This document shows, one piece after another, positions 1 through 12,710 of a stretch of DNA of 12,710 bases; position 1 is the stretch's first letter, and each line of letters starts with the position of its first letter. Made by a program: the position numbers and the translations under genes. The stretch covers positions 1 through 12,710 of the IMG/VR virus record IMGVR_UViG_3300045988_019235, one strand, 5' to 3'. The notes below the pieces were generated by a model, which saw nothing but the letters and a program-made list of their open reading frames with translations, searched no databases and was not told the origin of the DNA. Source of the stretch: a virus.

Positions 1-23
1 TTCCTCTGAACGCTCTTCCGATC
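1..23. other. Adapter-like terminal 23-mer (probable library artefact, not phage DNA)
   Basis: TTCCTCTGAACGCTCTTCCGATC contains GCTCTTCCGATC, the reverse complement of the Illumina adapter core GATCGGAAGAGC. The whole 23-mer resembles the old paired-end adapter ...TTCCTGCTGAACCGCTCTTCCGATCT apart from two 1-nt gaps. Confidence 0.7.
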
Positions 24-179
24 CAGCATAAAGGTACACAAGGCACCCATTTTTAACATTTCCCAACAGGTTTTTAACACTTGCTAACACACTTTGGCAC
101 GCTTTTTGTTGCCGTGCCACAAGTACCACAATTAACAAGCCTTAACACACTTTAACTCTGTTAAACTTTCATAAAAATG

Positions 180-224
180 ATGTTTCACGTGGAACGGTGG
201 CAAAGTGAATGTTTCACGTGGAAC
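180..224. promoter_or_regulatory. Two ATGTTTCACGTGGAAC sites (182..195 and 211..224) at the inner edge of ITR-L; candidate protein-binding sites
   Basis: The same 16-mer occurs twice, 29 bp apart. It has a CACGTG core and is a near-palindrome. The same motif recurs at 7603..7616 and at 12459..12529. Confidence 0.6.
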
Positions 225-285
225 AAAATTGCGTATATGTTAAAAAGATTTAAATTAATATTTTTGCATTATTTAACAAAAATAA

Positions 286-317
286 TTTGGTTTGTTCGTG
301 GAAAATGCTTATCTTTG
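286..317 (+). promoter_or_regulatory. Promoter P1 (Bacteroidota-type: -33 TTTG at 286..289, -7 TAtcTTTG at 310..317)
   Basis: The sequence is TTTGGT...20-nt spacer...TATCTTTGCA, lying about 45 nt upstream of the ATG at 362. The same architecture and spacing occur at P2 and P3. Confidence 0.7.
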
Positions 318-361: not shown

Positions 362-688
362 ATGGCAACGTATGAAATTACTTTAGAGTTTGAAACAGTT
401 TTATCTGTTGACGGTACACGTGTTAAAAGTGAAACATCACGTGAAACACAAATAGTTACAGGTGTTTTTGCTGACGTGGCAAAAGTTATGTTTGAACACG
501 AAACAAACTGCATCAAGCACAACAGATTGCCAAAGTTGACGAAAGACGTTTACACCGTCTTTGAATCGAAAGATAGTTTGAACTACATCAACGAATATGG
601 ATGCTGTGTTACTCAACTTTGCAACAAATTAGGTAATAACGCTAGTTCATTCTTACAGTTGATTCAAACAAGCAAAAGAATCAAATAA
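362..688 (+). CDS. Hypothetical protein (108 aa), first gene of the left operon
   Basis: ORF directly downstream of P1 with no competing long ORF. The C-terminal segment VTQLCNKLGNNASSFLQLIQ could be helix-turn-helix-like, which is speculative. It carries a CACGTGAAACA half-site internally (438..448). Confidence 0.6.
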   Translation: MATYEITLEFETVLSVDGTRVKSETSRETQIVTGVFADVAKVMFEHETNCIKHNRLPKLTKDVYTVFESKDSLNYINEYGCCVTQLCNKLGNNASSFLQLIQTSKRIK

Positions 689-698
689 ATGTTTAACC

Positions 699-724
699 GC
701 CTGTAAGGTTCAACCCTTACAGGC
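699..724 (+). other. Intergenic 10-bp-stem hairpin GCCTGTAAGG-ttcaac-CCTTACAGGC inside a GTTTAACCGCC...GGCACAAA motif
   Basis: Perfect inverted repeat read directly. No T-tract follows, so it is not a canonical intrinsic terminator. Confidence 0.5.
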
Positions 725-739
725 ACAAACAAAAAAGTT

Positions 740-934
740 ATGATTAGAGTTGAAAAGTTTAAGTTTGAAAACCGTTTTGAATCTTTTGAAACGAAAAACA
801 TAAAGGTAGTTACAAAAGCGTTAAAAGACTATCGTTTTTGTGGTGGCGGTTTATATATCCACACAAAGTTTGTCGGGCAATATGCAAAGGTGGATTTTAT
901 AGACGTTAACGGCAAACCTGTTAAAAGCATATAA
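740..934 (+). CDS. Hypothetical protein (64 aa)
   Basis: ORF in the same orientation and tightly spaced within the left operon. No recognisable motif. Confidence 0.5.
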   Translation: MIRVEKFKFENRFESFETKNIKVVTKALKDYRFCGGGLYIHTKFVGQYAKVDFIDVNGKPVKSI

Positions 935-969
935 GTTTAACCGCCCTTATGGGCACAAATAATTGATAT

Positions 970-1164
970 ATGGAATATTCATATTTTAAAATTACATTGA
1001 AACAGTCGGACAAAGTAACCGTGTATATGGTACGTTCTGACAAAGTAAGCGAGTTTTTCAACAACAAAATCGACTATTTACAGGGCGACTGTTCGATAAC
1101 TGTAAAGGGTCGTTTTCCAACGCACAAAGATTCTCGAAAGTGGTTTATTGTTTCACCTAAATAA
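970..1164 (+). CDS. Hypothetical protein (64 aa)
   Basis: ORF in operon context, ending 2 nt before the endolysin ORF. No recognisable motif. Confidence 0.5.
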   Translation: MEYSYFKITLKQSDKVTVYMVRSDKVSEFFNNKIDYLQGDCSITVKGRFPTHKDSRKWFIVSPK

Positions 1165-1172
1165 TAGTGTAT

Positions 1173-1595
1173 ATGAAAAAGATTAAGTATTTTAGTTTGA
1201 ATGAGTTTATCACCTCACCAACTGCAAAACGTTTGGGCATTGACAATTTGCCAACGTTTGAAATCGTTGACAACTTGAATCGTCTTGCCGATTATTTGGA
1301 TGGCATCCGTGAAAAGTTAGGCAAACCGATATTGATTAATAGCGGTTATCGTTCACCGATTCTTAATAAAGCGGTTGGCGGTGTGTCTAACAGTCAACAC
1401 CTTAAAGGTTTGGCTGCGGATATTGTTTGCTCTGATATGGAATCTTTGTTAAAGGTTCTTAGAGAAACAGGCGGTTTTGACCAACTTATTAAGGAACACC
1501 GCAAAGGTTCTACATCTTTTTGGTATCACGTTTCAGTTTGTTCACGTAACGGCAAACCCCGTAATCAAGTAATAATGAATCTAGAAAAGAAATAG
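1173..1595 (+). CDS. Endolysin, zinc peptidase M15 family (VanY / L-Ala-D-Glu peptidase-like)
   Basis: SQHLKGLAAD matches the M15 zinc-binding signature SxHxxGxAxD, and a downstream His lies in FWYHVS. It is single-domain, with no signal peptide or TM segment. The ORF track begins at GTG 1167; ATG 1173 (MKKIKYF...) is the more likely start. Confidence 0.85.
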   Translation: MKKIKYFSLNEFITSPTAKRLGIDNLPTFEIVDNLNRLADYLDGIREKLGKPILINSGYRSPILNKAVGGVSNSQHLKGLAADIVCSDMESLLKVLRETGGFDQLIKEHRKGSTSFWYHVSVCSRNGKPRNQVIMNLEKK

Positions 1596-1597
1596 TT

Positions 1598-1846
1598 ATG
1601 CACGAACATTTTAAACTTCTGAAAGATTCCATTTCAGTAACAAAGAAAAGTATTGAAACTGTTGCAAACGATTCAGCTAGCGAAACAGGTTTACTGTTAA
1701 CTTCGTGTGCTGATACCTTACAGGCGAATTTGATTTTCATTGATGCTTTAGAAGTTAAAGCACAAACCTGTTTAGCAGAACGAAACGACCTGTTAACGTT
1801 CATCAATAACAAAGGGTTGTTAGAAGAATTTTATGGTAAGAAATAA
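1598..1846 (+). CDS. Hypothetical protein (82 aa), last gene of the left operon
   Basis: ATG 2 nt after the endolysin stop. Predicted to be helical, with no clear TM segment. Followed by the bidirectional terminator. Confidence 0.55.
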   Translation: MHEHFKLLKDSISVTKKSIETVANDSASETGLLLTSCADTLQANLIFIDALEVKAQTCLAERNDLLTFINNKGLLEEFYGKK

Positions 1847-1850
1847 AGAA

Positions 1851-1878
1851 AACGGGCGGCATCCATTTACCGCCCGTT
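1851..1878. terminator. Bidirectional intrinsic terminator between convergent operons
   Basis: AACGGGCGG-catccattta-CCGCCCGTT is a perfect 9-bp GC-rich stem. It is followed by ATCTTTT on the + strand and by TTTTCTTTATTT on the - strand. It sits between the stops at 1846 (+) and 1884 (-). Confidence 0.8.
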
Positions 1879-1883
1879 ATCTT

Positions 1884-3977
1884 TTATAGATAAACACCTG
1901 TTTCAAGCTGTGAAACAATTTCGTTATATTCATCAACCAACAGATTTGCCGTGTTCAAATTCACGTTGGAAAACTGTGCGAAACCTGTAACCGCATTTAT
2001 AGTTACGTTTTCTTGCGTGTTGTTTACAGGAACATCAACGGTTAAATTCTCAGTAATCAATACATAAGGTTCTAAACCGTACAAAATTTGTTCGTTCCAT
2101 TGTTCACCGCCAACAACGTTTAAATCCGTTCCCAAACGGTAAAGAACATCACGTGACAAAGAAAAACTTTCAATTTGGAATGTCACACCGTCACACGATA
2201 ACAACGCAACAGAATCGCCCGTAATAACGTTTACTTTGATAGTTAAATTAATCGTTTTACCGATGTATTTACTATCTATAGTAACAACACCCCGACACGG
2301 AATAAACATCTGTACCTGTGCGTTAAAGTCTTCATTGTTACCGTTTGCGCCTGTTAGTTCAACGTTTCCGAAATCTAGAACAATAACATCACTATCGGGA
2401 TATTTTACATTTATTCCCGTGTTGTAGTTACCGCATTTCAGAACGTCATCACCGCCAACGGGAACGGTTGTAAAGATTCTTTTGATACGGTTTACATATT
2501 GACCCAAATTGACTTCTGAATATTTTGCACCCGTTTCTGTTTCCCCTGTTTGAACAAAGAAACGTTTCTTTGCAAACTCATCCAAATTCGCCAACGTAAC
2601 GATATAAACGTTTATAGCACCGTAATTTTTGATAGTTGGCGGTGTAACTACATTCGCATTCGCAACGATATTCAAATCAACTGCATTCGGTGTTAAAGTG
2701 AACGTTACACTACCCGTTTGTTTATCTGCTGATATTGTACCGTTTACAACTACGGGATTCCCGTCATCATCTTTGAAATTTGCTTCAATTTCGGTCAATT
2801 CCGTGTTCGGGTTTGCTCTGAAATTAAACGTGTAACTTTGACCCGTTTTAACCTTTACAGGTTTATCGCCAACGATTTCGCAATTAGTCAAACCGTATTG
2901 AACTTCGATATATTTACCTAATAAGTACTCACCGTTGATAATAACCGATTCCGTTGCTATAGGCACAATAGCCGTTGCGGTTTGGTTCGTTACAGTCATA
3001 TTGTAGGTTTCGCCACCGTATGTTATCGTTGGCGTACCGTTAAACATTCCCTTTGCGTTTCCTGTAACCGTTACGGTGTAATTTGTTTCACTTGCAACAG
3101 AACTTGCTGTTGTGTTCTGAATATTGTTGGTTATTTGCAGTTCACGAACACCCGAAATAAAACTACCTGTTATAGTAATTTCGTCACCCTTAGAACAATA
3201 AACAGTAAGTGTTGCAACGTTACCCGATACGGCAAACGGTTCTTTTGTATAGTTTCCATCCCAATCGGTATAACTAGCCATCAAATTGCTAAATGTGCCC
3301 TCACCGTTACCCGTCACCGTTACATTGAAGTGGTGGGCATCCGTTCCCTGTTGGTCGGTTATTGTAACGTCACCCGTCAAACCTGTTTTGTCATAAGACA
3401 ACAAAGTTGTCGGTGTTGGTGGGTCGGGTGTGCCACCGCTTACAAACTCACCTGTTATCGCAATCTCATCACCTTTATTACAGTAAACCGTAATCGTTCC
3501 AACGTTACCCGATACGGCAAACGGTTCTTTTGTATAGTTTCCATCCCAATCGGTATAACTAGCCATCAAATTGCTAAATGTGCCCTCACCGTTACCCGTC
3601 ACCGTTACATTGAAGTGGTGGGCATCCGTTCCCTGTTGGTCGGTTATTGTAACGTCACCCGTCAAACCTGTTGTGTCGTATTTTAACAAGTTTGTGGGCG
3701 TTGGTGTACCGCTTACAAATTCACCGTAAACCGTAACGGTGTTCCAATAGTTTGTGTTGGCAAATAATGTGGCGACTTTTCCGTTAACTGTAAACGGGTG
3801 TTTTGCCCAATCGCCATCCATATTTTCATAGCCACCCGATAAACCGTCTTTAAAATAACCGTCAACGTTTCCCGTCAAAGTTATTTTAAAATGTTTGTCG
3901 TCACCGTCTTGTTCAACTTTCGTTGAAACATCACCGACAAATCGTGATAAACTAATATTTACTAATCTTTCAGCCAT
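1884..3977 (-). CDS. Tail / receptor-binding protein (697 aa) with N-terminal tandem beta-sandwich-like repeats
   Basis: Last and largest gene of the structural operon. It has three about 95-aa tandem modules at the N-terminus (two near-identical), further Ig-like-looking segments and a distinct about 250-aa C-terminal domain. Function is inferred from position and architecture only. Confidence 0.55.
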   Translation of the reverse strand: MAERLVNISLSRFVGDVSTKVEQDGDDKHFKITLTGNVDGYFKDGLSGGYENMDGDWAKHPFTVNGKVATLFANTNYWNTVTVYGEFVSGTPTPTNLLKYDTTGLTGDVTITDQQGTDAHHFNVTVTGNGEGTFSNLMASYTDWDGNYTKEPFAVSGNVGTITVYCNKGDEIAITGEFVSGGTPDPPTPTTLLSYDKTGLTGDVTITDQQGTDAHHFNVTVTGNGEGTFSNLMASYTDWDGNYTKEPFAVSGNVATLTVYCSKGDEITITGSFISGVRELQITNNIQNTTASSVASETNYTVTVTGNAKGMFNGTPTITYGGETYNMTVTNQTATAIVPIATESVIINGEYLLGKYIEVQYGLTNCEIVGDKPVKVKTGQSYTFNFRANPNTELTEIEANFKDDDGNPVVVNGTISADKQTGSVTFTLTPNAVDLNIVANANVVTPPTIKNYGAINVYIVTLANLDEFAKKRFFVQTGETETGAKYSEVNLGQYVNRIKRIFTTVPVGGDDVLKCGNYNTGINVKYPDSDVIVLDFGNVELTGANGNNEDFNAQVQMFIPCRGVVTIDSKYIGKTINLTIKVNVITGDSVALLSCDGVTFQIESFSLSRDVLYRLGTDLNVVGGEQWNEQILYGLEPYVLITENLTVDVPVNNTQENVTINAVTGFAQFSNVNLNTANLLVDEYNEIVSQLETGVYL
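3123..3977 (-). repeat. Tandem 285-bp (95-codon) coding repeat, three units (3693..3977 diverged; 3408..3692 and 3123..3407 near-identical)
   Basis: 3216..3387 and 3501..3672 are 172 bp of perfect identity, checked base by base, offset by exactly 285 bp. Confidence 0.9.
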
Positions 3978-5701: not shown

Positions 5702-6271
5702 TTAATAAATATCTATTGTTAACTCTTTTGCAAGTTCTGTTATCACTTGCGTTTTGAAATTAGTTTTGCGCAAACTCATTTCTTTTTGAATAATTTCACT
5801 AGTTGGAACACTAGACGGAACACCGTTCTTAATACTTGTTTTCGTGCCCGTTTCTTGTCTGTTCCCTGTGGAATCTCTTTGCTGTTTCGTGTCATTTCCA
5901 AATTCCCCATTATTAAACGTTACACTTGAATCGACTGTGCTGTTATTGCCTGTTTCGTCAACGGTGTTACTTGTTGTTTCCGTTGTCTTTGACGTTACAG
6001 GGTTCAACACGTCATATTCTTTATTAAACACTTGAATCTGTTTTTGCCATTCGCCAAACTTTACTGTAATAATACCTTTGACAATATCGTTTGCAGTTTC
6101 GTTTGTAACGGCATCACACAAAGTTCTGTTTCCATATTTGAAACGAAAATCAATATCTATTATTTTCGGGTCATCCGTGCCGAATATTGATTCATACAAA
6201 ACAGGAAACAGGGGTTTAAAGATTTTATCAAATAAACCGTTTTCAGTTGTAAAAAGTTCATTAATTTTCAT
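5702..6271 (-). CDS. Hypothetical structural protein (189 aa), possible scaffold or head-associated protein
   Basis: Lies between the connector and capsid genes. Its start overlaps the connector stop by 11 nt. The middle is T/S/N-rich low complexity and the C-terminus is helical. Function is inferred from position only. Confidence 0.45.
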   Translation of the reverse strand: MKINELFTTENGLFDKIFKPLFPVLYESIFGTDDPKIIDIDFRFKYGNRTLCDAVTNETANDIVKGIITVKFGEWQKQIQVFNKEYDVLNPVTSKTTETTSNTVDETGNNSTVDSSVTFNNGEFGNDTKQQRDSTGNRQETGTKTSIKNGVPSSVPTSEIIQKEMSLRKTNFKTQVITELAKELTIDIY

Positions 6272-7325
6272 CTTTGTTTTCTTTTTCTTCTGTTTCTTCT
6301 GTTTCTTGCGTTTCTTCTGTTTCTGTTTCTGTTTCTTCTGTTTCTTCTGTTTCTTCTGTTTCTGTTTCCGTTTCTTCTGTTTCTTGCGTTTCTTCTGTTT
6401 CGTTTTCCGTTACAGGGTCAACGTCTTCTGTGTCGGTGTGTTCGTGCCCGTCTTCTGTTGCTTTGAGCAACGACAAATAATTTTCGTGTTCGATTTTCCA
6501 ACTTGACCCCAAAGTTACGGTAATATCCGTACCGAACATTTCGTTAACACGTTTCACACCCTCAACACGTTCTGTTAACATTGAATCAACGAACGGCATC
6601 AAAGCATCAATATTCATTGAAACTTCTTGCGTGTTCAATCGTTCACGTTTCATATTATAGTTTGCATTCAAACCCAAATCGTTGAACATTGATGCTTTGT
6701 AGTACTGCAACAGTTCTATTAATTGACCGATTTGTTGGTTTCCCTGTGTCGGTGGGGTCTGTAAGTTTACACCTTTGAAAAAAGCATTTTCACCGATAAC
6801 AGAAAAATCACCGTTCAAAATTTTCTGTAAGAACGATTCTGCACTCTGTTTGGTCTTATCGTCACTTGCCGAAATCAACATAGTGATGCGGGTCAATATG
6901 CTAGCCAAATTCAAAGTTATTGTGGCATCCGTGTAAAGTACACCATATTTGCCGATAATAGGCATAAGCGAATCCGCAAACGGTGTGTTATTGATAACTA
7001 CAATATCCTCATCAATTTTGAACGTTTTGTTCAACTTTAACCACGGGTTTGCAACAACGTAATCTTTGCCGTGATAATAGGCATCACAATCGCCACCCCG
7101 TGTGCCCTGTAAAGCATACAAATCCCCGTTGACTTCTGCTATTCCAACGTTACCCGTTGTTTGAAGAATCTTTTCAAGTTCAACAGGCGGCATTGTTTCG
7201 GGCATCCCCGTGTAAACAAACATTTTTGAAGTCATACAAAGAACACGTTGCATAAATGTGAATAATGCTGTATCTTTGTTTTTAACTTCTGTTTGAAACC
7301 TGTTATATAAGTTTTCTTTTTCCAT
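6261..7325 (-). CDS. Portal / head-tail connector (phi29 gp10 upper-collar-like) with acidic Glu/Thr-repeat C-terminal tail
   Basis: 354 aa. Size and pattern parallel phi29 gp10 as recalled from memory: MPETMPPVELEKILQTTGNVG near the N-terminus and NYNMKRERLNTQEVSMN in the centre. Confidence 0.75.
   Translation of the reverse strand: MEKENLYNRFQTEVKNKDTALFTFMQRVLCMTSKMFVYTGMPETMPPVELEKILQTTGNVGIAEVNGDLYALQGTRGGDCDAYYHGKDYVVANPWLKLNKTFKIDEDIVVINNTPFADSLMPIIGKYGVLYTDATITLNLASILTRITMLISASDDKTKQSAESFLQKILNGDFSVIGENAFFKGVNLQTPPTQGNQQIGQLIELLQYYKASMFNDLGLNANYNMKRERLNTQEVSMNIDALMPFVDSMLTERVEGVKRVNEMFGTDITVTLGSSWKIEHENYLSLLKATEDGHEHTDTEDVDPVTENETEETQETEETETETEETEETEETETETEETQETEETEEKENKDEN
6285..6410 (-). 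repeat. Coding microsatellite-like (TTCTGTTTC/TTCTGT)n tract encoding a 42-aa Glu/Thr tail
   Basis: The peptide TENETEETQETEETETETEETEETEETETETEETQETEETEE contains only E and T apart from one N and two Q. The DNA shows higher-order repeats. Confidence 0.9.
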
Positions 7326-7520
7326 TTACTTAATCAAAGTTTTAATTAAGGTACAAAGTTCTGTGAGCACCTTTGTGTTACTTTGTACCGTTTCATTTAA
7401 CTTGTCGGTTTCGTTTTGGTGTCGTTCGTTCTGTTTTTCCATATAGAAAAATAGGGCGACACACACCGCAACAGGAAAACCAACGTTGCTAATAAGTGAA
7501 ATTATTCCGTTTGCATCCAT
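7326..7520 (-). CDS. Small membrane protein (64 aa; N-terminal TM helix plus helical tail), holin candidate
   Basis: GIISLISNVGFPVAVCVALFFYM is the only clear TM segment in the genome. The ISNVGFPVAV pattern recalls YvrJ-family small membrane proteins (from memory, unverified). It is the first gene after P2, and its stop abuts the connector ATG. Confidence 0.6.
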   Translation of the reverse strand: MDANGIISLISNVGFPVAVCVALFFYMEKQNERHQNETDKLNETVQSNTKVLTELCTLIKTLIK

Positions 7521-7553
7521 ATAGTAATTTTTTAACTTTGTTATTTAACGCTG

Positions 7554-7585
7554 CAAAGATAATAACTTTATTTGGTTTCACCAAA
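7554..7585 (-). promoter_or_regulatory. Promoter P2 (Bacteroidota-type) for the structural operon
   Basis: The minus strand reads TTTGGTG...20-nt spacer...TATCTTTGCAG. The -33 element is the complement of 7582..7585 and the -7 element the complement of 7554..7561. It lies about 34 nt upstream of the ATG at 7520. Confidence 0.7.
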
Positions 7586-7588
7586 TAA

Positions 7589-7632
7589 AACAGGGGAAAA
7601 ATGTTTCACGTGAAACAATTTTAACCCCTGTT
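7589..7632 (-). terminator. Terminator hairpin of the replication/packaging operon, with the GTTTCACGTGAAAC palindrome (7603..7616) embedded
   Basis: The outer 8-bp stem AACAGGGG/CCCCTGTT (7589..7596 / 7625..7632) encloses AAAA..TTTT and the perfect 14-bp palindrome. On the minus strand the hairpin is followed by TTTTATTTGG, which contains the -33 TTTG of P2. It starts 9 nt after the ATPase stop. Confidence 0.65.
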
Positions 7633-7640
7633 AACAGATA

Positions 7641-8780
7641 TTAAGTAATAATATTACTGCGAGCACTCGCCATTAAATAGTTACGAACGATTTCGCCAAT
7701 TTCGTTACTTTGATAAAATACCTTATCGGTAGCGAAATATTTAGTTATCTGCGATTCTATATACGTTGCAGTACTCAACAACTTTCGTTTGTAGTTCGGT
7801 TTGCCGTTCATTTGCAACGAATAAATCAAACTGTTGTCGGTGTCCTTAATCGGTGTTGTTTTGTTGTGAATGTAAATGAAATTATTCACACCGTTTTCTT
7901 TGTCCTCAACCTGTATCACGTTACCCTGTAACGTCATTTCGTTAAACTGAATATAGAAGACAAACAACACGTCACTCGGTTTATATTTTACAGGTAGGTG
8001 CGGATATACTGCTAGTTCCCATTTACCGCCCGTAATCATTTGCAAATTTTGGTTGTCGAAACAGAAATATTTGTTACTCGCTTTCTGTTTGACAACAGTA
8101 CTGCAATATTCAACCGCAACCGTTGCACCGTGCTCACCGAACTTATAAATATCTATTGTGCCCTGTTCCATCACTCGCACCTGTTTCAATCCCATTTCGG
8201 TAAAATACGGGCAAAACTGATTCACGGTATTACCTAACATAAAGACTTTAACATCATTTCTTTGACGAATAATTGTACTCAACAGGTTCATATATAGCAT
8301 AAACTCATCGGGCAAATAATAACGTCTTGTAAGGAACTCATCGAAAACAATAGTAGTTATGTTCGGGTAACTGCTAGATTTTTCGTGTTCCTGTTCTGAA
8401 AGACAAAAACCATAACAGAACGGTGTGTTTTCGGGCACACGTTTTTTCGTTTCTGCATCATAGAACGAAAGAAACCATTTACCCGAAACGTAAAACACTT
8501 CGTTAAACTTACCGTTTGTAAGTTCTTTTATCACACCGTTTGCCACGTGATTTGCAAACAAACTTTCTGCACGTTTGCCCCTTAAATCTTCTCGCCAACG
8601 TCTAATATAAGCCATTTGTTTACCTGTGCGCAAATATTCTTTTATTCCATACAACAACGTTGCATACGTCTTGCCGTTGGAACGTTCACCGAAAATAACG
8701 TTGTAATCTGCATTTTTTGATAAAATACGATTCAACGTGTAAAATTTAGGTGTTTCAACTTTTTCTTTTTTCTGTTTCAT
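7641..8780 (-). CDS. DNA encapsidation (packaging) ATPase, phi29 gp16-like
   Basis: 379 aa. Walker A is GERSNGKT (codons at 8667..8690) and Walker B-like is TTIVFDEF. Size and single-subunit organisation are typical of phi29-type packaging ATPases. Confidence 0.8.
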   Translation of the reverse strand: MKQKKEKVETPKFYTLNRILSKNADYNVIFGERSNGKTYATLLYGIKEYLRTGKQMAYIRRWREDLRGKRAESLFANHVANGVIKELTNGKFNEVFYVSGKWFLSFYDAETKKRVPENTPFCYGFCLSEQEHEKSSSYPNITTIVFDEFLTRRYYLPDEFMLYMNLLSTIIRQRNDVKVFMLGNTVNQFCPYFTEMGLKQVRVMEQGTIDIYKFGEHGATVAVEYCSTVVKQKASNKYFCFDNQNLQMITGGKWELAVYPHLPVKYKPSDVLFVFYIQFNEMTLQGNVIQVEDKENGVNNFIYIHNKTTPIKDTDNSLIYSLQMNGKPNYKRKLLSTATYIESQITKYFATDKVFYQSNEIGEIVRNYLMASARSNIIT

Positions 8781-11660: not shown

Positions 11661-11684
11661 ATTATTACAGTTTTAAAATGAAAC

Positions 11685-11727
11685 AAAAAACGGGGCAACA
11701 ATAAACAAAGTTACTGTTTACCCCGTC
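11685..11727 (-). terminator. Putative attenuator/terminator between the 121-aa gene and the TP-polymerase genes
   Basis: The minus-strand RNA reads ACGGGGUAA...UUGCCCCGU, a 9-bp stem with one G-U pair, followed by UUUUUU. It starts 30 nt after the stop at 11757 and ends about 24 nt before the ATG at 11660. Confidence 0.45.
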
Positions 11728-11756: not shown

Positions 11757-12122
11757 CTACTTATCTACAAACGTTATACCATAACATTTCTTTGCGTGCG
11801 ATTCATATTCGTAAATCGTGTAACCAACTTTGTTGGCTTTGATAGCATCAACCGCCTCACTATCTGCGAGAATCTCACGAATCGTGTCACCTGTGAACTG
11901 TGGCAAATTTACAAGACGTTTGTTCTCGGCATCAATAATAACAGGCGAATCACCCAACTGCGATTTGTGAACGTACATACCGTTGATAGGGTGTACCACA
12001 TCACCGCCACCCTCATTCTCGCTGTTGAAAATGTCGGTCAACTTTACAAACGGAAAATCGGTTGTATCAATACCGAAACTTGTCTTATTGAACTTACTTG
12101 CAAAACTAAAACCTTTAGCCAT
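11757..12122 (-). CDS. Early protein (121 aa), possible ssDNA-binding protein
   Basis: Its size and position (upstream of TP and polymerase) mirror phi29 p5 (124 aa). The C-terminal strand-loop-strand pattern is loosely similar. Weak evidence. Confidence 0.55.
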   Translation of the reverse strand: MAKGFSFASKFNKTSFGIDTTDFPFVKLTDIFNSENEGGGDVVHPINGMYVHKSQLGDSPVIIDAENKRLVNLPQFTGDTIREILADSEAVDAIKANKVGYTIYEYESHAKKCYGITFVDK

Positions 12123-12374: not shown

Positions 12375-12406
12375 CAAAGATACGTCTTTTTCTAATAACC
12401 ACCAAA
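12375..12406 (-). promoter_or_regulatory. Promoter P3 (Bacteroidota-type) for the right-end replication operon
   Basis: The minus strand reads TTTGGTG...20-nt spacer...TATCTTTGCAC. The -33 element is the complement of 12403..12406 and the -7 element the complement of 12375..12382. The upstream TTAACtAAAATAATTTGGT is 18/19 identical to the equivalent P1 segment. Confidence 0.7.
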
Positions 12407-12458
12407 TTATTTTAGTTAAAAAGTATTAAAGAATAAAATTAATATCTGTTAACACTTC

Positions 12459-12529
12459 GTTTCACGTGAAACATTAATAACAGTTTGTTCCACGTGAAAC
12501 ATTCACTTTGCCACCGTTCCACGTGAAAC
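12459..12529. promoter_or_regulatory. Three phased GTT(T/C)CACGTGAAAC sites (12459..12472 unique perfect palindrome; 12487..12500 and 12516..12529 in ITR-R)
   Basis: Read directly. Spacing is 28 and 29 bp. The unique copy is flanked by the CTGTTA/TAACAG inverted repeat (12446..12451 / 12478..12483). Confidence 0.6.
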
Positions 12530-12710
12530 ATCATTTTTATGAAAGTTTAACAGAGTTAAAGTGTGTTAAGGCTTGTTAATTGTGGTACTTGTGGCACGGC
12601 AACAAAAAGCGTGCCAAAGTGTGTTAGCAAGTGTTAAAAACCTGTTGGGAAATGTTAAAAATGGGTGCCTTGTGTACCTTTATGCTGGATCGGAAGAGCG
12701 TTCAGAGGAA
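12484..12710. repeat. Right inverted terminal repeat (ITR-R)
   Basis: Exact reverse complement of 1..227. Confidence 0.95.
12688..12710. other. Adapter-like terminal 23-mer (mirror copy)
   Basis: GATCGGAAGAGCGTTCAGAGGAA, compared with the Illumina PE adapter GATCGGAAGAGCGGTTCAGCAGGAA... as recalled from memory. Confidence 0.7.

Follow-up and report, generated by a model that had tools for sequence, protein, structure and literature searches.

We suggest that the junction between the replication and structural operons of a phi29-like gut phage is a three-in-one module, in which an intrinsic terminator, the late promoter P2 and a parS loading site for the ParB protein of the host are probably combined. 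Judged by its sequence, the palindrome at the tip of the terminator hairpin is a copy of the chromosome-segregation site parS, which suggests that the phage borrows ParB from its host. The three activities of the module would most likely be separable.

Results

Genome organization around the junction

The window, i.e. the whole stretch of DNA analysed, is the complete linear genome of a phi29-like podovirus of 12,710 bases, with sequencing-adapter remnants at ~1..23 and 12688..12710. Its inverted terminal repeats are seen as ends that are identical over 1..227; hence, the true terminal repeat is ~198 bp long. Protein-primed replication of the genome is deduced from its family-B DNA polymerase (minus strand, PF03175), its probable terminal protein, the terminal repeats and an atypical single-stranded DNA-binding protein (SSB). 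Starting from the right end, the minus strand encodes a 55-aa ORF, a 121-aa protein, the probable terminal protein of 223 aa, the polymerase and the packaging ATPase, whose stop codon TAA (7643..7641) closes the right-hand, replication operon. A 120-nt gap separates the ATPase gene from the structural genes. The first gene of the late operon encodes a 64-aa membrane protein; in distant phi29-like phages, homologues of it are likewise encoded after the ATPase. Beyond it lie the genes of the connector, a 189-aa protein, the phi29-type major capsid protein, a 151-aa protein and a 697-aa tail protein. At the left end the plus strand carries a short operon (362..1846), one product of which is an M15 peptidase endolysin. 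The elements of the junction and its two flanking genes are the following.

7641..8780, minus strand: gene of the phi29 gp16-type DNA packaging ATPase (Pfam PF05894, E = 1.9e-23; PHROG 2150 terminase, E = 3.3e-34)
7589..7632, minus strand: hairpin, very probably of an intrinsic terminator, with the basal clamp AACAGGGG/CCCCUGUU, an A/U-rich middle and parS as the apical stem-loop (folding, covariation)
7602..7617, no strand assigned: putative parS site TGTTTCACGTGAAACA, 16/16 match to the chromosomal ParB-binding consensus TGTTNCACGTGAAACA
7582..7590, minus strand: T-tract of the terminator, TTTTATTTG, ending in the four bases (7585..7582) that form the -33 TTTG of P2 (column conservation 0.99 in clade 1)
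7554..7585, minus strand: predicted structural (late) promoter P2, with -33 TTTG (7585..7582), a 20-nt spacer and the -7 box TATCTTTG (7561..7554) (consensus match)
7326..7520, minus strand: gene of the 64-aa membrane protein, probably a holin (PHROG 4898 holin, E = 4.2e-8)

Among cultured phages, Salmonella phage Astrid and others like it from Proteobacteria come closest, their polymerases being 42-47% identical, and no near-identical DNA was found among GenBank phages. The phage family is very abundant in metagenomes: 318 stretches in IMG/VR encode a relative of the packaging ATPase, and 7,186 of 8,000 scored candidates from public data are ATPase homologues at E <= 1e-10. A scan of the whole window against Rfam gave only a sub-threshold match to CsrC, which lies outside the junction, and no RNA family covers the junction.

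The hairpin is very probably an intrinsic terminator

A hairpin was expected from the preliminary description to start nine nucleotides after the ATPase stop, and this is indeed so, 7632 being the ninth nucleotide past the stop codon. The same description took 7589..7632 for a 44-nt near-perfect inverted repeat. The location holds, while "near-perfect" is slightly generous, as the 18 pairs (8 basal, 4 A-U and 6 apical) are interrupted by one 2-nt internal loop and one 1x1 mismatch. The hairpin on the minus strand has a minimum free energy of -19.8 kcal/mol, compared to -7.5 +/- 2.5 kcal/mol in 200 shuffled sequences (z = -4.93, none of the 200 as good); the value for the plus strand is nearly equal, -19.6 kcal/mol. 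The hairpin is directly followed by TTTTATTTGG (also written TTTTATTT or UUUUAUUU). A simple terminator consensus scan missed the junction hairpin, because its stem is long and interrupted. Two further hairpins of the same design were identified with the terminator scan and folding.

11727..11691, minus strand: hairpin and T-tract at the end of the gene of the 121-aa putative SSB
1878..1851: hairpin and T-tract at the end of the tail gene, bidirectional

Conservation of the hairpin was analysed in clade 1, for which the gap of the window was aligned with that of 80 IMG/VR genomes; their ATPases are at least 93% identical, with gap DNA down to 76%. RNAalifold on the MAFFT alignment missed the outer stem owing to indels, and the conservation was assessed by folding every sequence separately and by explicit pair counts. 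For these counts three clade-1 contigs from bacterial genome assemblies (L163-L165) were added (n = 84). Folded singly, nearly all of the 81 clade-1 gap sequences keep the hairpin. The fourth basal pair could be read in clean register in 55 of the 84 clade-1 genomes and is A-U in 22, G-C in 27 and G.U in 6 of them, with no case of A.C (Fisher p = 3.5e-10). On a neighbour-joining tree of the flanking coding sequence the covarying columns underwent at least 7 and at least 10 state changes. Only in the sense transcript is the G.U pair permissible, and this points to an RNA structure encoded by the minus strand. In divergent members of clade 1 the clamp is shifted to AAGACAGGG/CCCTGTTTT, yet it is kept.

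A sister group, clade 2 (80 genomes, ATPase ~80% identical), carries at this position a G+C-rich hairpin of unrelated sequence, ACGGGCGGTTTGGTGC-AAATTTC-GTGCCGAACCGCCCGT; TTTTAC and then the -7 box TAYCTTTGCA come after it. In Salmonella phage Astrid and its kin the ATPase and membrane-protein genes are not separated by a gap; therefore, the terminator-promoter junction is an innovation of the gut lineage. As the basal G/C stem co-varies across 84 relatives, the junction hairpin is very probably an intrinsic, Rho-independent terminator. The earlier proposal that such a terminator ends the replication/ATPase operon is thus well supported by the stability of the hairpin, its T-tract, the covariation in the sense RNA and the equivalent hairpin of the sister clade.

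P2 is a predicted Bacteroidota-type promoter

The TTTG at 7585..7582 opens the only match to TTTG-N20-TAnnTTTG in the region, in line with the prior claim that the U-tract contains the -33 box of P2. The pattern occurs three times in the window, compared to 0.21 expected, and none of 200 shuffled sequences reached three matches. Besides P2 the matches are the two below.

286..317, plus strand: predicted promoter P_L at the head of its operon (TTTG-N20-TAnnTTTG match)
12406..12375, minus strand: predicted early promoter P_R at the head of its operon (TTTG-N20-TAnnTTTG match)

Each of P_L, P2 and P_R heads an operon in the correct orientation, and all three have the identical -7 box TATCTTTGCA. 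The TTTG / TAnnTTTG pattern, with a spacing of ~19-20 nt, is the promoter consensus for sigma-ABfr, the primary sigma factor of Bacteroides (PMC7366714). P2 lies 33 nt upstream of the first late gene, and we infer its transcription start, i.e. the 5' end of the late RNA, at ~7549..7546. Within clade 1 the -7 box of P2 has a column conservation of 0.99 and the spacer 0.78; in clade 2 the -7 box is kept and the -33 box is not. A GTGAAAC half-site and a small hairpin are present in the spacer (7581..7567), and neither is conserved in the clade-1 relatives, where they vary freely. Hence, the suggested promoter that overlaps the T-tract stands as a predicted Bacteroidota sigma-A-type promoter of the structural operon, with conserved boxes and a free spacer. 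Since P2 matches the full consensus, it should need no factor.

A Shine-Dalgarno-like sequence is absent from 14 of the 16 genes, as expected for Bacteroidota. From the promoter type together with the lack of Shine-Dalgarno sequences we infer that the host belongs to this phylum. The bins in which relatives are found are labelled Gastranaerophilales, Melainabacteria, Prevotella, Scatosoma, Staphylococcaceae, Christensenellaceae and Acutalibacteraceae (MAG labels). They were discarded as a clue to the host, being taxonomically inconsistent and looking like mis-binned free phage contigs.

The palindrome reads as parS

The palindrome announced for the hairpin apex, GTTTCACGTGAAAC, is present there at 7603..7616, and with one more base on each side it gives the 16-mer listed above. 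The consensus that this 16-mer matches is that of the chromosomal parS site, which is nearly universal and at which ParB/Spo0J is loaded (PMC7022226; PMC10197239). Five more sites are found at the genome ends.

181..196, no strand assigned: putative parS in the left terminal repeat, one mismatch, upstream of P_L
210..225, no strand assigned: putative parS in the left terminal repeat, perfect, upstream of P_L
12458..12473, no strand assigned: putative parS beside the right repeat, one mismatch, upstream of P_R
12486..12501, no strand assigned: putative parS in the right terminal repeat, perfect, upstream of P_R
12515..12530, no strand assigned: putative parS in the right terminal repeat, one mismatch, upstream of P_R

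The sites at 210 and 12486 match at 16/16 positions as TGTTCCACGTGAAACA, the form typical of B. subtilis. All six parS sites have at most one mismatch, compared to 0.14 sites expected even when two mismatches are allowed. Similarly, the 14-mer of the apex occurs six times in the window with at most one mismatch, against an expectation of 0.18 that already allows two. Most of the 160 contigs of clades 1 and 2 that reach the genome ends have the terminal-repeat copies.

Among the 81 clade-1 genomes the junction site is perfect in 56 and has one mismatch in 17, so that 73 have at most one. The mean column conservation is 0.96 for the parS site and 0.94 for its unpaired loop ACGT, compared to 0.78 for the P2 spacer. 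Conservation of the loop above that of the spacer favours a sequence-specific constraint over hairpin stability alone. Several of the apex variants in clade 1 are U.G-compatible (wobble) and fit plain selection for a hairpin equally well. None of the 80 clade-2 genomes has a junction parS, and in one clade-1 genome (L027) the apex is deleted; thus, the junction copy is dispensable.

Pfam and PHROGs searches detected no ParB-family protein among the 16 ORFs judged to be genes. With no ParB of its own, the phage would rely on a host protein for binding. ParABS homologues and parS of the same consensus have been found in two gut Bacteroidetes (PMC10197239).

The site recurs in distant phi29-like phages

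The exact 16-mer was searched in IMG/VR. It is multi-copy in very distant phi29-like phages with polymerases 23-44% identical to that of this phage, some of which have Firmicute-style ribosome-binding sites, and also in an unrelated podovirus-like group. The contigs with several copies are largely phi29-like and include some with Firmicute-like and some with Bacteroidota-like expression signals, which argues for a universally conserved binder. No phage protein is as conserved as the spread of the 16-mer demands; in an all-against-all BLASTP of the ORFs from motif-bearing contigs there was no small protein common to all.

The phi29 record itself has four perfect parS sites. One of them (17243..17258) starts one base past the stop of gene 16, which encodes the packaging ATPase, and the terminator TD1 begins 3 nt further on. 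L217 and L235, with ATPases 41% and 28% identical to gp16, show the same junction, TAA(A)TGTTTCACGTGAAACA. The distance from the ATPase stop to the site is 25-56 nt in the window, L168 and L169 and 180-300 nt in L240 and L276. In L176, L190, L217, L235 and L276 the sites immediately precede the homologue of the 64-aa late gene. The placement relative to the promoter varies. Of three more distant relatives from genome assemblies, L169 carries parS within the P2 spacer, L168 has two copies past the -7 box, upstream of the ATG, and L170 has the half-sites 20 nt apart, with the hairpin retained but no parS. In L235 the site abuts a TTGACA box.

Since phi29, L217, L235, L168 and L169 share an ATPase-adjacent parS, its location at the 3' end of the ATPase gene appears to be an old, positionally conserved trait of phi29-like phages. 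What seems particular to this clade is the nesting of parS into the terminator stem, which it lengthens.

Six cultured proteobacterial relatives, including Acinetobacter and Vibrio phages, have no parS; hence, parS is no necessity for this phage type. The distribution was also compared with that of host ParABS. Enterobacterales lack chromosomal par genes (PMC7022226). The four relatives that are enterobacterial phages have no parS, as predicted, and the Acinetobacter and Vibrio phages have none either. Acinetobacter and Vibrio hosts do have ParABS, so that this control is weakly informative. A gut phage of similar size, MT836125, has two parS sites; it turned out to be a distant Firmicute-type relative and was useless for analysis of the junction.

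No dedicated regulator detected and no fixed coupling supported

The palindrome had been described as an operator of a regulatory protein. It does belong to a repeated element of the protein-binding type, but the 16/16 match to parS speaks against the operator of a dedicated regulator. Searches against Pfam and PHROGs detected no p4-like or other transcription regulator among the 16 ORFs. Two candidates were considered and rejected. The 108-aa ORF at 362..688 was viewed as a possible helix-turn-helix regulator; it has no family match and is not conserved even within clade 1. The 121-aa early protein was viewed as a possible binder of the palindrome; its fold matches SSBs of protein-primed phages. 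It is the most conserved small early protein and is, like the palindrome, absent from phage Astrid. Its AlphaFold model has a pLDDT of 54 with a shallow alignment and 88 with a deeper one, and the best match of the predicted fold is the SSB of Staphylococcus phage JBug18 (E = 9e-9, TM 0.71), with weak matches to PRD1 P12 and PrgE. According to the model, the 121-aa protein is thus an SSB of the type found in protein-primed phages.

Termination, protein binding and initiation at P2 had also been proposed to be mechanistically coupled. This was not borne out. The 80 clade-2 genomes keep the terminator and the promoter without parS, and L027 has deleted it, so that an obligatory coupling is not supported. 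In the window the edge of the junction parS is 17 bp from the -33 box. Across lineages parS is absent at the junction (clade 2), in the spacer (L169), downstream of the -7 box (L168) or right after the stop codon (L217, L235 and phi29). As no parS-promoter geometry is fixed between lineages, the comparison does not support a coupled module as a conserved design. It is possible that ParB, once bound, influences P2 or read-through.

Discussion

Proposed mechanism

We suggest that transcripts of the replication/ATPase operon, initiated at P_R, would fold the 7632..7589 hairpin and be released at the U-tract in a Rho-independent manner, so that their 3' ends are predicted here. The primary sigma factor of the host, of the Bacteroidota type, would start the late operon at P2, the -33 TTTG of which is the end of the T-tract. 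As duplex DNA, the tip of the hairpin would present a canonical parS and, together with the five terminal sites, would most likely load the chromosomal ParB of the host. The loading of ParB would tie the phage genome to the segregation and positioning machinery of the host, as is the case for phi29 with Spo0J in B. subtilis. Phage DNA would thereby be more readily inherited or persist in the dividing cells of a non-sporulating gut host (carrier state).

A broader proposal can be made only tentatively, and we regard it as rather doubtful. Hijacking of host ParB-parS may be an ancient, general trait of phi29-like phages, including very abundant human-gut phages of non-sporulating Bacteroidota, rather than a speciality tied to Bacillus sporulation. 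ParB clamps, loaded at the terminal repeats and at the site by the ATPase gene, might position "lytic" 12-kb linear genomes and have them inherited like mini-chromosomes in a carrier state. Where parS overlaps expression signals, as at the terminator and P2 here, ParB might also damp late transcription, thus linking persistence to the silencing of lytic genes.

Alternative explanations

The palindrome could instead be a transcriptional control site, at which either a dedicated regulator or ParB, acting as a silencer or roadblock, modulates read-through, activates or represses P2 and, via the terminal copies, also acts on P_R and P_L, as an early/late or lytic/quiescent switch. Such a role fits the centre of the site, which is ~61.5 bp upstream of the predicted P2 start, the classical position of an activator, and the presence of copies upstream of all three promoters. 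Moreover, parS is found in the P2 spacer (L169), past the -7 box (L168) or against a TTGACA box (L235), and a protein bound there must affect transcription. ParB-family proteins can silence neighbouring promoters, as is known for P1 ParB, KorB and N15 SopB. We nevertheless consider a control site unlikely: the promoter geometry is not conserved between lineages, clade 2 has the terminator and P2 without the palindrome, and P2, P_R and P_L are all full-consensus promoters with the same -7 box. A regulator gene was not recognized in any of the 16 ORFs, the small early protein with the highest conservation is predicted to be an SSB and not a transcription factor, and with an exact match to parS there is no need for a separate regulator. 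The apex could also be purely structural, i.e. lengthen the terminator hairpin, its parS identity being inherited as a relic or as a copy of the module beside the right repeat with no present ParB function here. The changes seen in relatives are mostly wobble-compatible (T.G) or in the loop, the split half-sites of L170 still form a hairpin, an unrelated hairpin serves clade 2, and the site together with the 15-nt TTAATATCTGTTAAC is common to the right end, suggesting a duplication. A purely structural apex is, however, quite improbable in view of the perfect 16-mer in 56/81 clade-1 genomes and of the unpaired loop ACGT, which is as conserved as the stem and more conserved than the neutral spacer. 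In addition, the same post-ATPase site is present in phages with an ATPase or polymerase ~24-41% identical to that of phi29 or of this phage, and a relic would not survive such divergence.

Finally, the inverted repeat might act as DNA in replication, forming a hairpin or cruciform in the single strands displaced during protein-primed synthesis, e.g. as a pause site or a landmark for SSB or polymerase. In favour of this, the folding energies of the two strands are nearly equal, and replication is protein-primed, as the polymerase, the probable terminal protein, the repeats and the SSB indicate. Nonetheless, the G.U pair of the basal stem is tolerated only in the sense RNA, where no A.C is found, while on the other strand it corresponds to A.C; the T-tract and the location past a stop codon fit termination; and the closest cultured relatives have no such element. 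A role of the repeat at the DNA level in replication thus seems highly improbable to us. The terminator with a parS tip, joined to P2, remains our preferred explanation.

Comparison with known systems

The parS sites of phi29 are bound by the host Spo0J and help to move the phage genome into the prespore, as PMC2731898 states in summarising Meijer et al. 2005. The window resembles phi29 in several respects. Both are protein-primed and have a gp16 ATPase, a connector and a phi29-type capsid protein. The sites are of the same 16-bp class, the four perfect TGTTCCACGTGAAACA of phi29 being the same variant as the terminal-repeat copies of the window. The window has no phage ParB, and the sites of phi29 depend on host Spo0J. 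In both, one site is directly 3' of the ATPase gene and by a Rho-independent terminator (TD1 in phi29, 17262..17301). However, in phi29 the site and the terminator are side by side, whereas here the site is nested in the stem and the promoter follows at once. The ATPase gene ends the late operon in phi29 and the replication operon here. Unlike in phi29, which has 6-bp repeats and sites mostly inside genes, 5/6 sites of the window are in or beside the 198-bp terminal repeats. Trapping in the prespore cannot apply here if the host is a non-sporulating member of the Bacteroidota, as the promoters suggest.

With the centromeres of chromosomal ParABS systems the window shares the exact match to TGTTNCACGTGAAACA, the presence of several clustered copies and the palindromic 16-mer. 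Here, however, the sites are carried by a 12.7-kb genome of a lytic-type phage, which has no parA or parB of its own and no chromosomal origin nearby. We know of no study of ParB clamp loading on short linear, protein-capped DNA. The linear plasmid-prophage N15 has dispersed centromere sites, located in promoter regions and bound by SopB. As in the window, several partition sites are scattered between the expression signals of a linear phage genome, so that a bound protein may also affect transcription, but N15 differs in having its own SopAB and another site sequence and in being a true prophage.

The p4/A3 switch of phi29 also has inverted repeats between the early and late units, upstream of the late promoter; in the window no p4 homologue was detected, and the site reads as parS, not as a p4 site. 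The A3 promoter of phi29 has no -35 box (PMC2731898), whereas P2 of the window has a full -33 box. Ordinary terminator-promoter junctions, e.g. that of phi29 TD1, similarly have a hairpin with a G+C clamp and a U-tract past the stop codon. The positional analogue of TD1 in the window is the bidirectional terminator at 1851..1878. In contrast to ordinary junctions, the U-tract here doubles as the -33 box of the next promoter and the stem carries a putative protein-binding site.

The use of host parS by phi29 is already published. New are the nesting in a terminator, the fusion to a promoter, the copies in the terminal repeats and the host context. A 2024 review of phi29-like phage diversity makes no mention of parS, Spo0J or ParB, and no report of parS use in gut or Bacteroidota-type phages was found in the open-access literature. 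The use of Spo0J and parS by phi29 has so far been treated as a niche adaptation to spore formation. The same site is found here, in several copies and at the same gene boundary, in very abundant human-gut phi29-like phages with Bacteroidota-type signals. If host ParB is recruited, this would provide a concrete, testable mechanism for the persistence of small "virulent" gut phages in dividing hosts (carrier state). If the proposed module is real, it would also be a natural compact part for Bacteroides engineering, with a terminator, a centromere site and a strong promoter in ~80 bp. For annotation it follows that a conserved palindrome beside a promoter need not be an operator.

Short repeats next to the hairpin

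Last, we note the short repeats at the hairpin base. A 10-bp palindrome CTGTTAACAG had been reported to overlap the base, and CTGTTAAC to recur next to the right-end palindrome. The coordinates are correct (7628..7637 for CTGTTAACAG and 12446..12453 for CTGTTAAC), but the palindrome is not conserved in relatives. Most of them read CTGTTAACGG at its position, and only its core is kept.

7630..7636, minus strand: conserved TGTTAAC motif, core of CTGTTAACAG (column conservation 0.975)

The stretch common to the junction and the right end is 15 nt long, being located at 12439..12453 on the plus strand as the reverse complement of 7629..7643. As read from the sequence, TGTTAA(C/A) is also present 48, 51 and 48 nt upstream of the -33 box in P_R, P2 and P_L, respectively.

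parS in other phages

Among the relatives of the phage, contig L169 (JAZRKO010000018.1), whose packaging ATPase is 70% identical, carries six perfect copies of the 14-bp parS core GTTTCACGTGAAAC, with 0-2 mismatches against the full 16-mer.

191, 2441, 5823, 7453, 9575, 11971 (L169): copies of the parS core

The copies are separated by gaps of 1.6-3.4 kb, and three of the six lie within coding regions, namely those of the polymerase and two structural genes. They are spaced as if candidate ParB loading sites covered the whole genome. Contigs L191, L231 and L243 (also L246, L265, L275 and L290) are podovirus-like and unrelated to phi29, with a large terminase, an SU10-type portal and a G+C of ~0.5. 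They contain 3-5 perfect parS 16-mers, clustered in a stretch of ~0.8 kb that is non-coding or has small ORFs, and may be a further example of phages with host-type parS.

Genome ends and a second candidate element

Leftover sequencing adapter (…CTCTTCCGATC…) occupies both ends of the window (1-29 and 12682-12710). The true termini start at about AAAGGTAC, position 30, which is reminiscent of AAAGTA in phi29. The two copies of the terminal repeat are identical across positions 1..227, and each terminal repeat has TTAAC(A) 5-6 times.

100-130, terminal repeats: CTTTGGCACG(G/C)TTTTTG motif, one copy in the window
238-243, 7630-7636, 12448-12454: TGTTAA(C/A) motif

The first of these motifs makes an inverted repeat GGCACG…CGTGCC in the window and is present three times, as ~50-bp repeats, in the terminal repeats of the sister clade 2 (L083, 1-250). 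The TGTTAA(C/A) motif lies upstream of the -33 box of each of the predicted promoters P_L, P2 and P_R, at 48, 51 and 48 nt, respectively, and is kept in relatives. It may be a second protein-binding element, associated with either the origin or a regulator.

Terminators and the early SSB

1851-1878, both strands: strong bidirectional terminator hairpin AACGGGCGG…CCGCCCGTT
11681-11727, minus strand: second terminator-like hairpin ACGGGG…CCCCGT, then TTTTTTGTTT
11757-12122, minus strand: gene of the 121-aa early protein (SSB)

The hairpin at 1851-1878 (-24.9 and -20.2 kcal/mol on its two strands) separates the convergent tail and lysis operons. By position it is the analogue of the phi29 terminator TD1, but it has no parS.

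The 121-aa early protein has no match in Pfam or PHROG. Its structural model is nonetheless confident (pLDDT 88) and resembles the atypical SSBs that protein-primed phages encode, with the SSB of Staphylococcus phage JBug18 as the top match (TM 0.71) and PRD1 P12 and PrgE as weak matches. Many homologues have N-terminal extensions of 20-70 aa. The hairpin at 11681-11727 lies directly 3' of this gene, ahead of the probable terminal-protein gene, and may act as an attenuator raising SSB expression, much like the terminator within gene 4 of phi29.

Structural proteins

The C-terminus of the connector (6261-6420, minus-strand gene) is a long, acidic tail of low complexity with ETEETEETQETEE… repeats. 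The 697-aa tail protein, also from a minus-strand gene, has a near-perfect internal duplication of ~100 aa (2900-3700).
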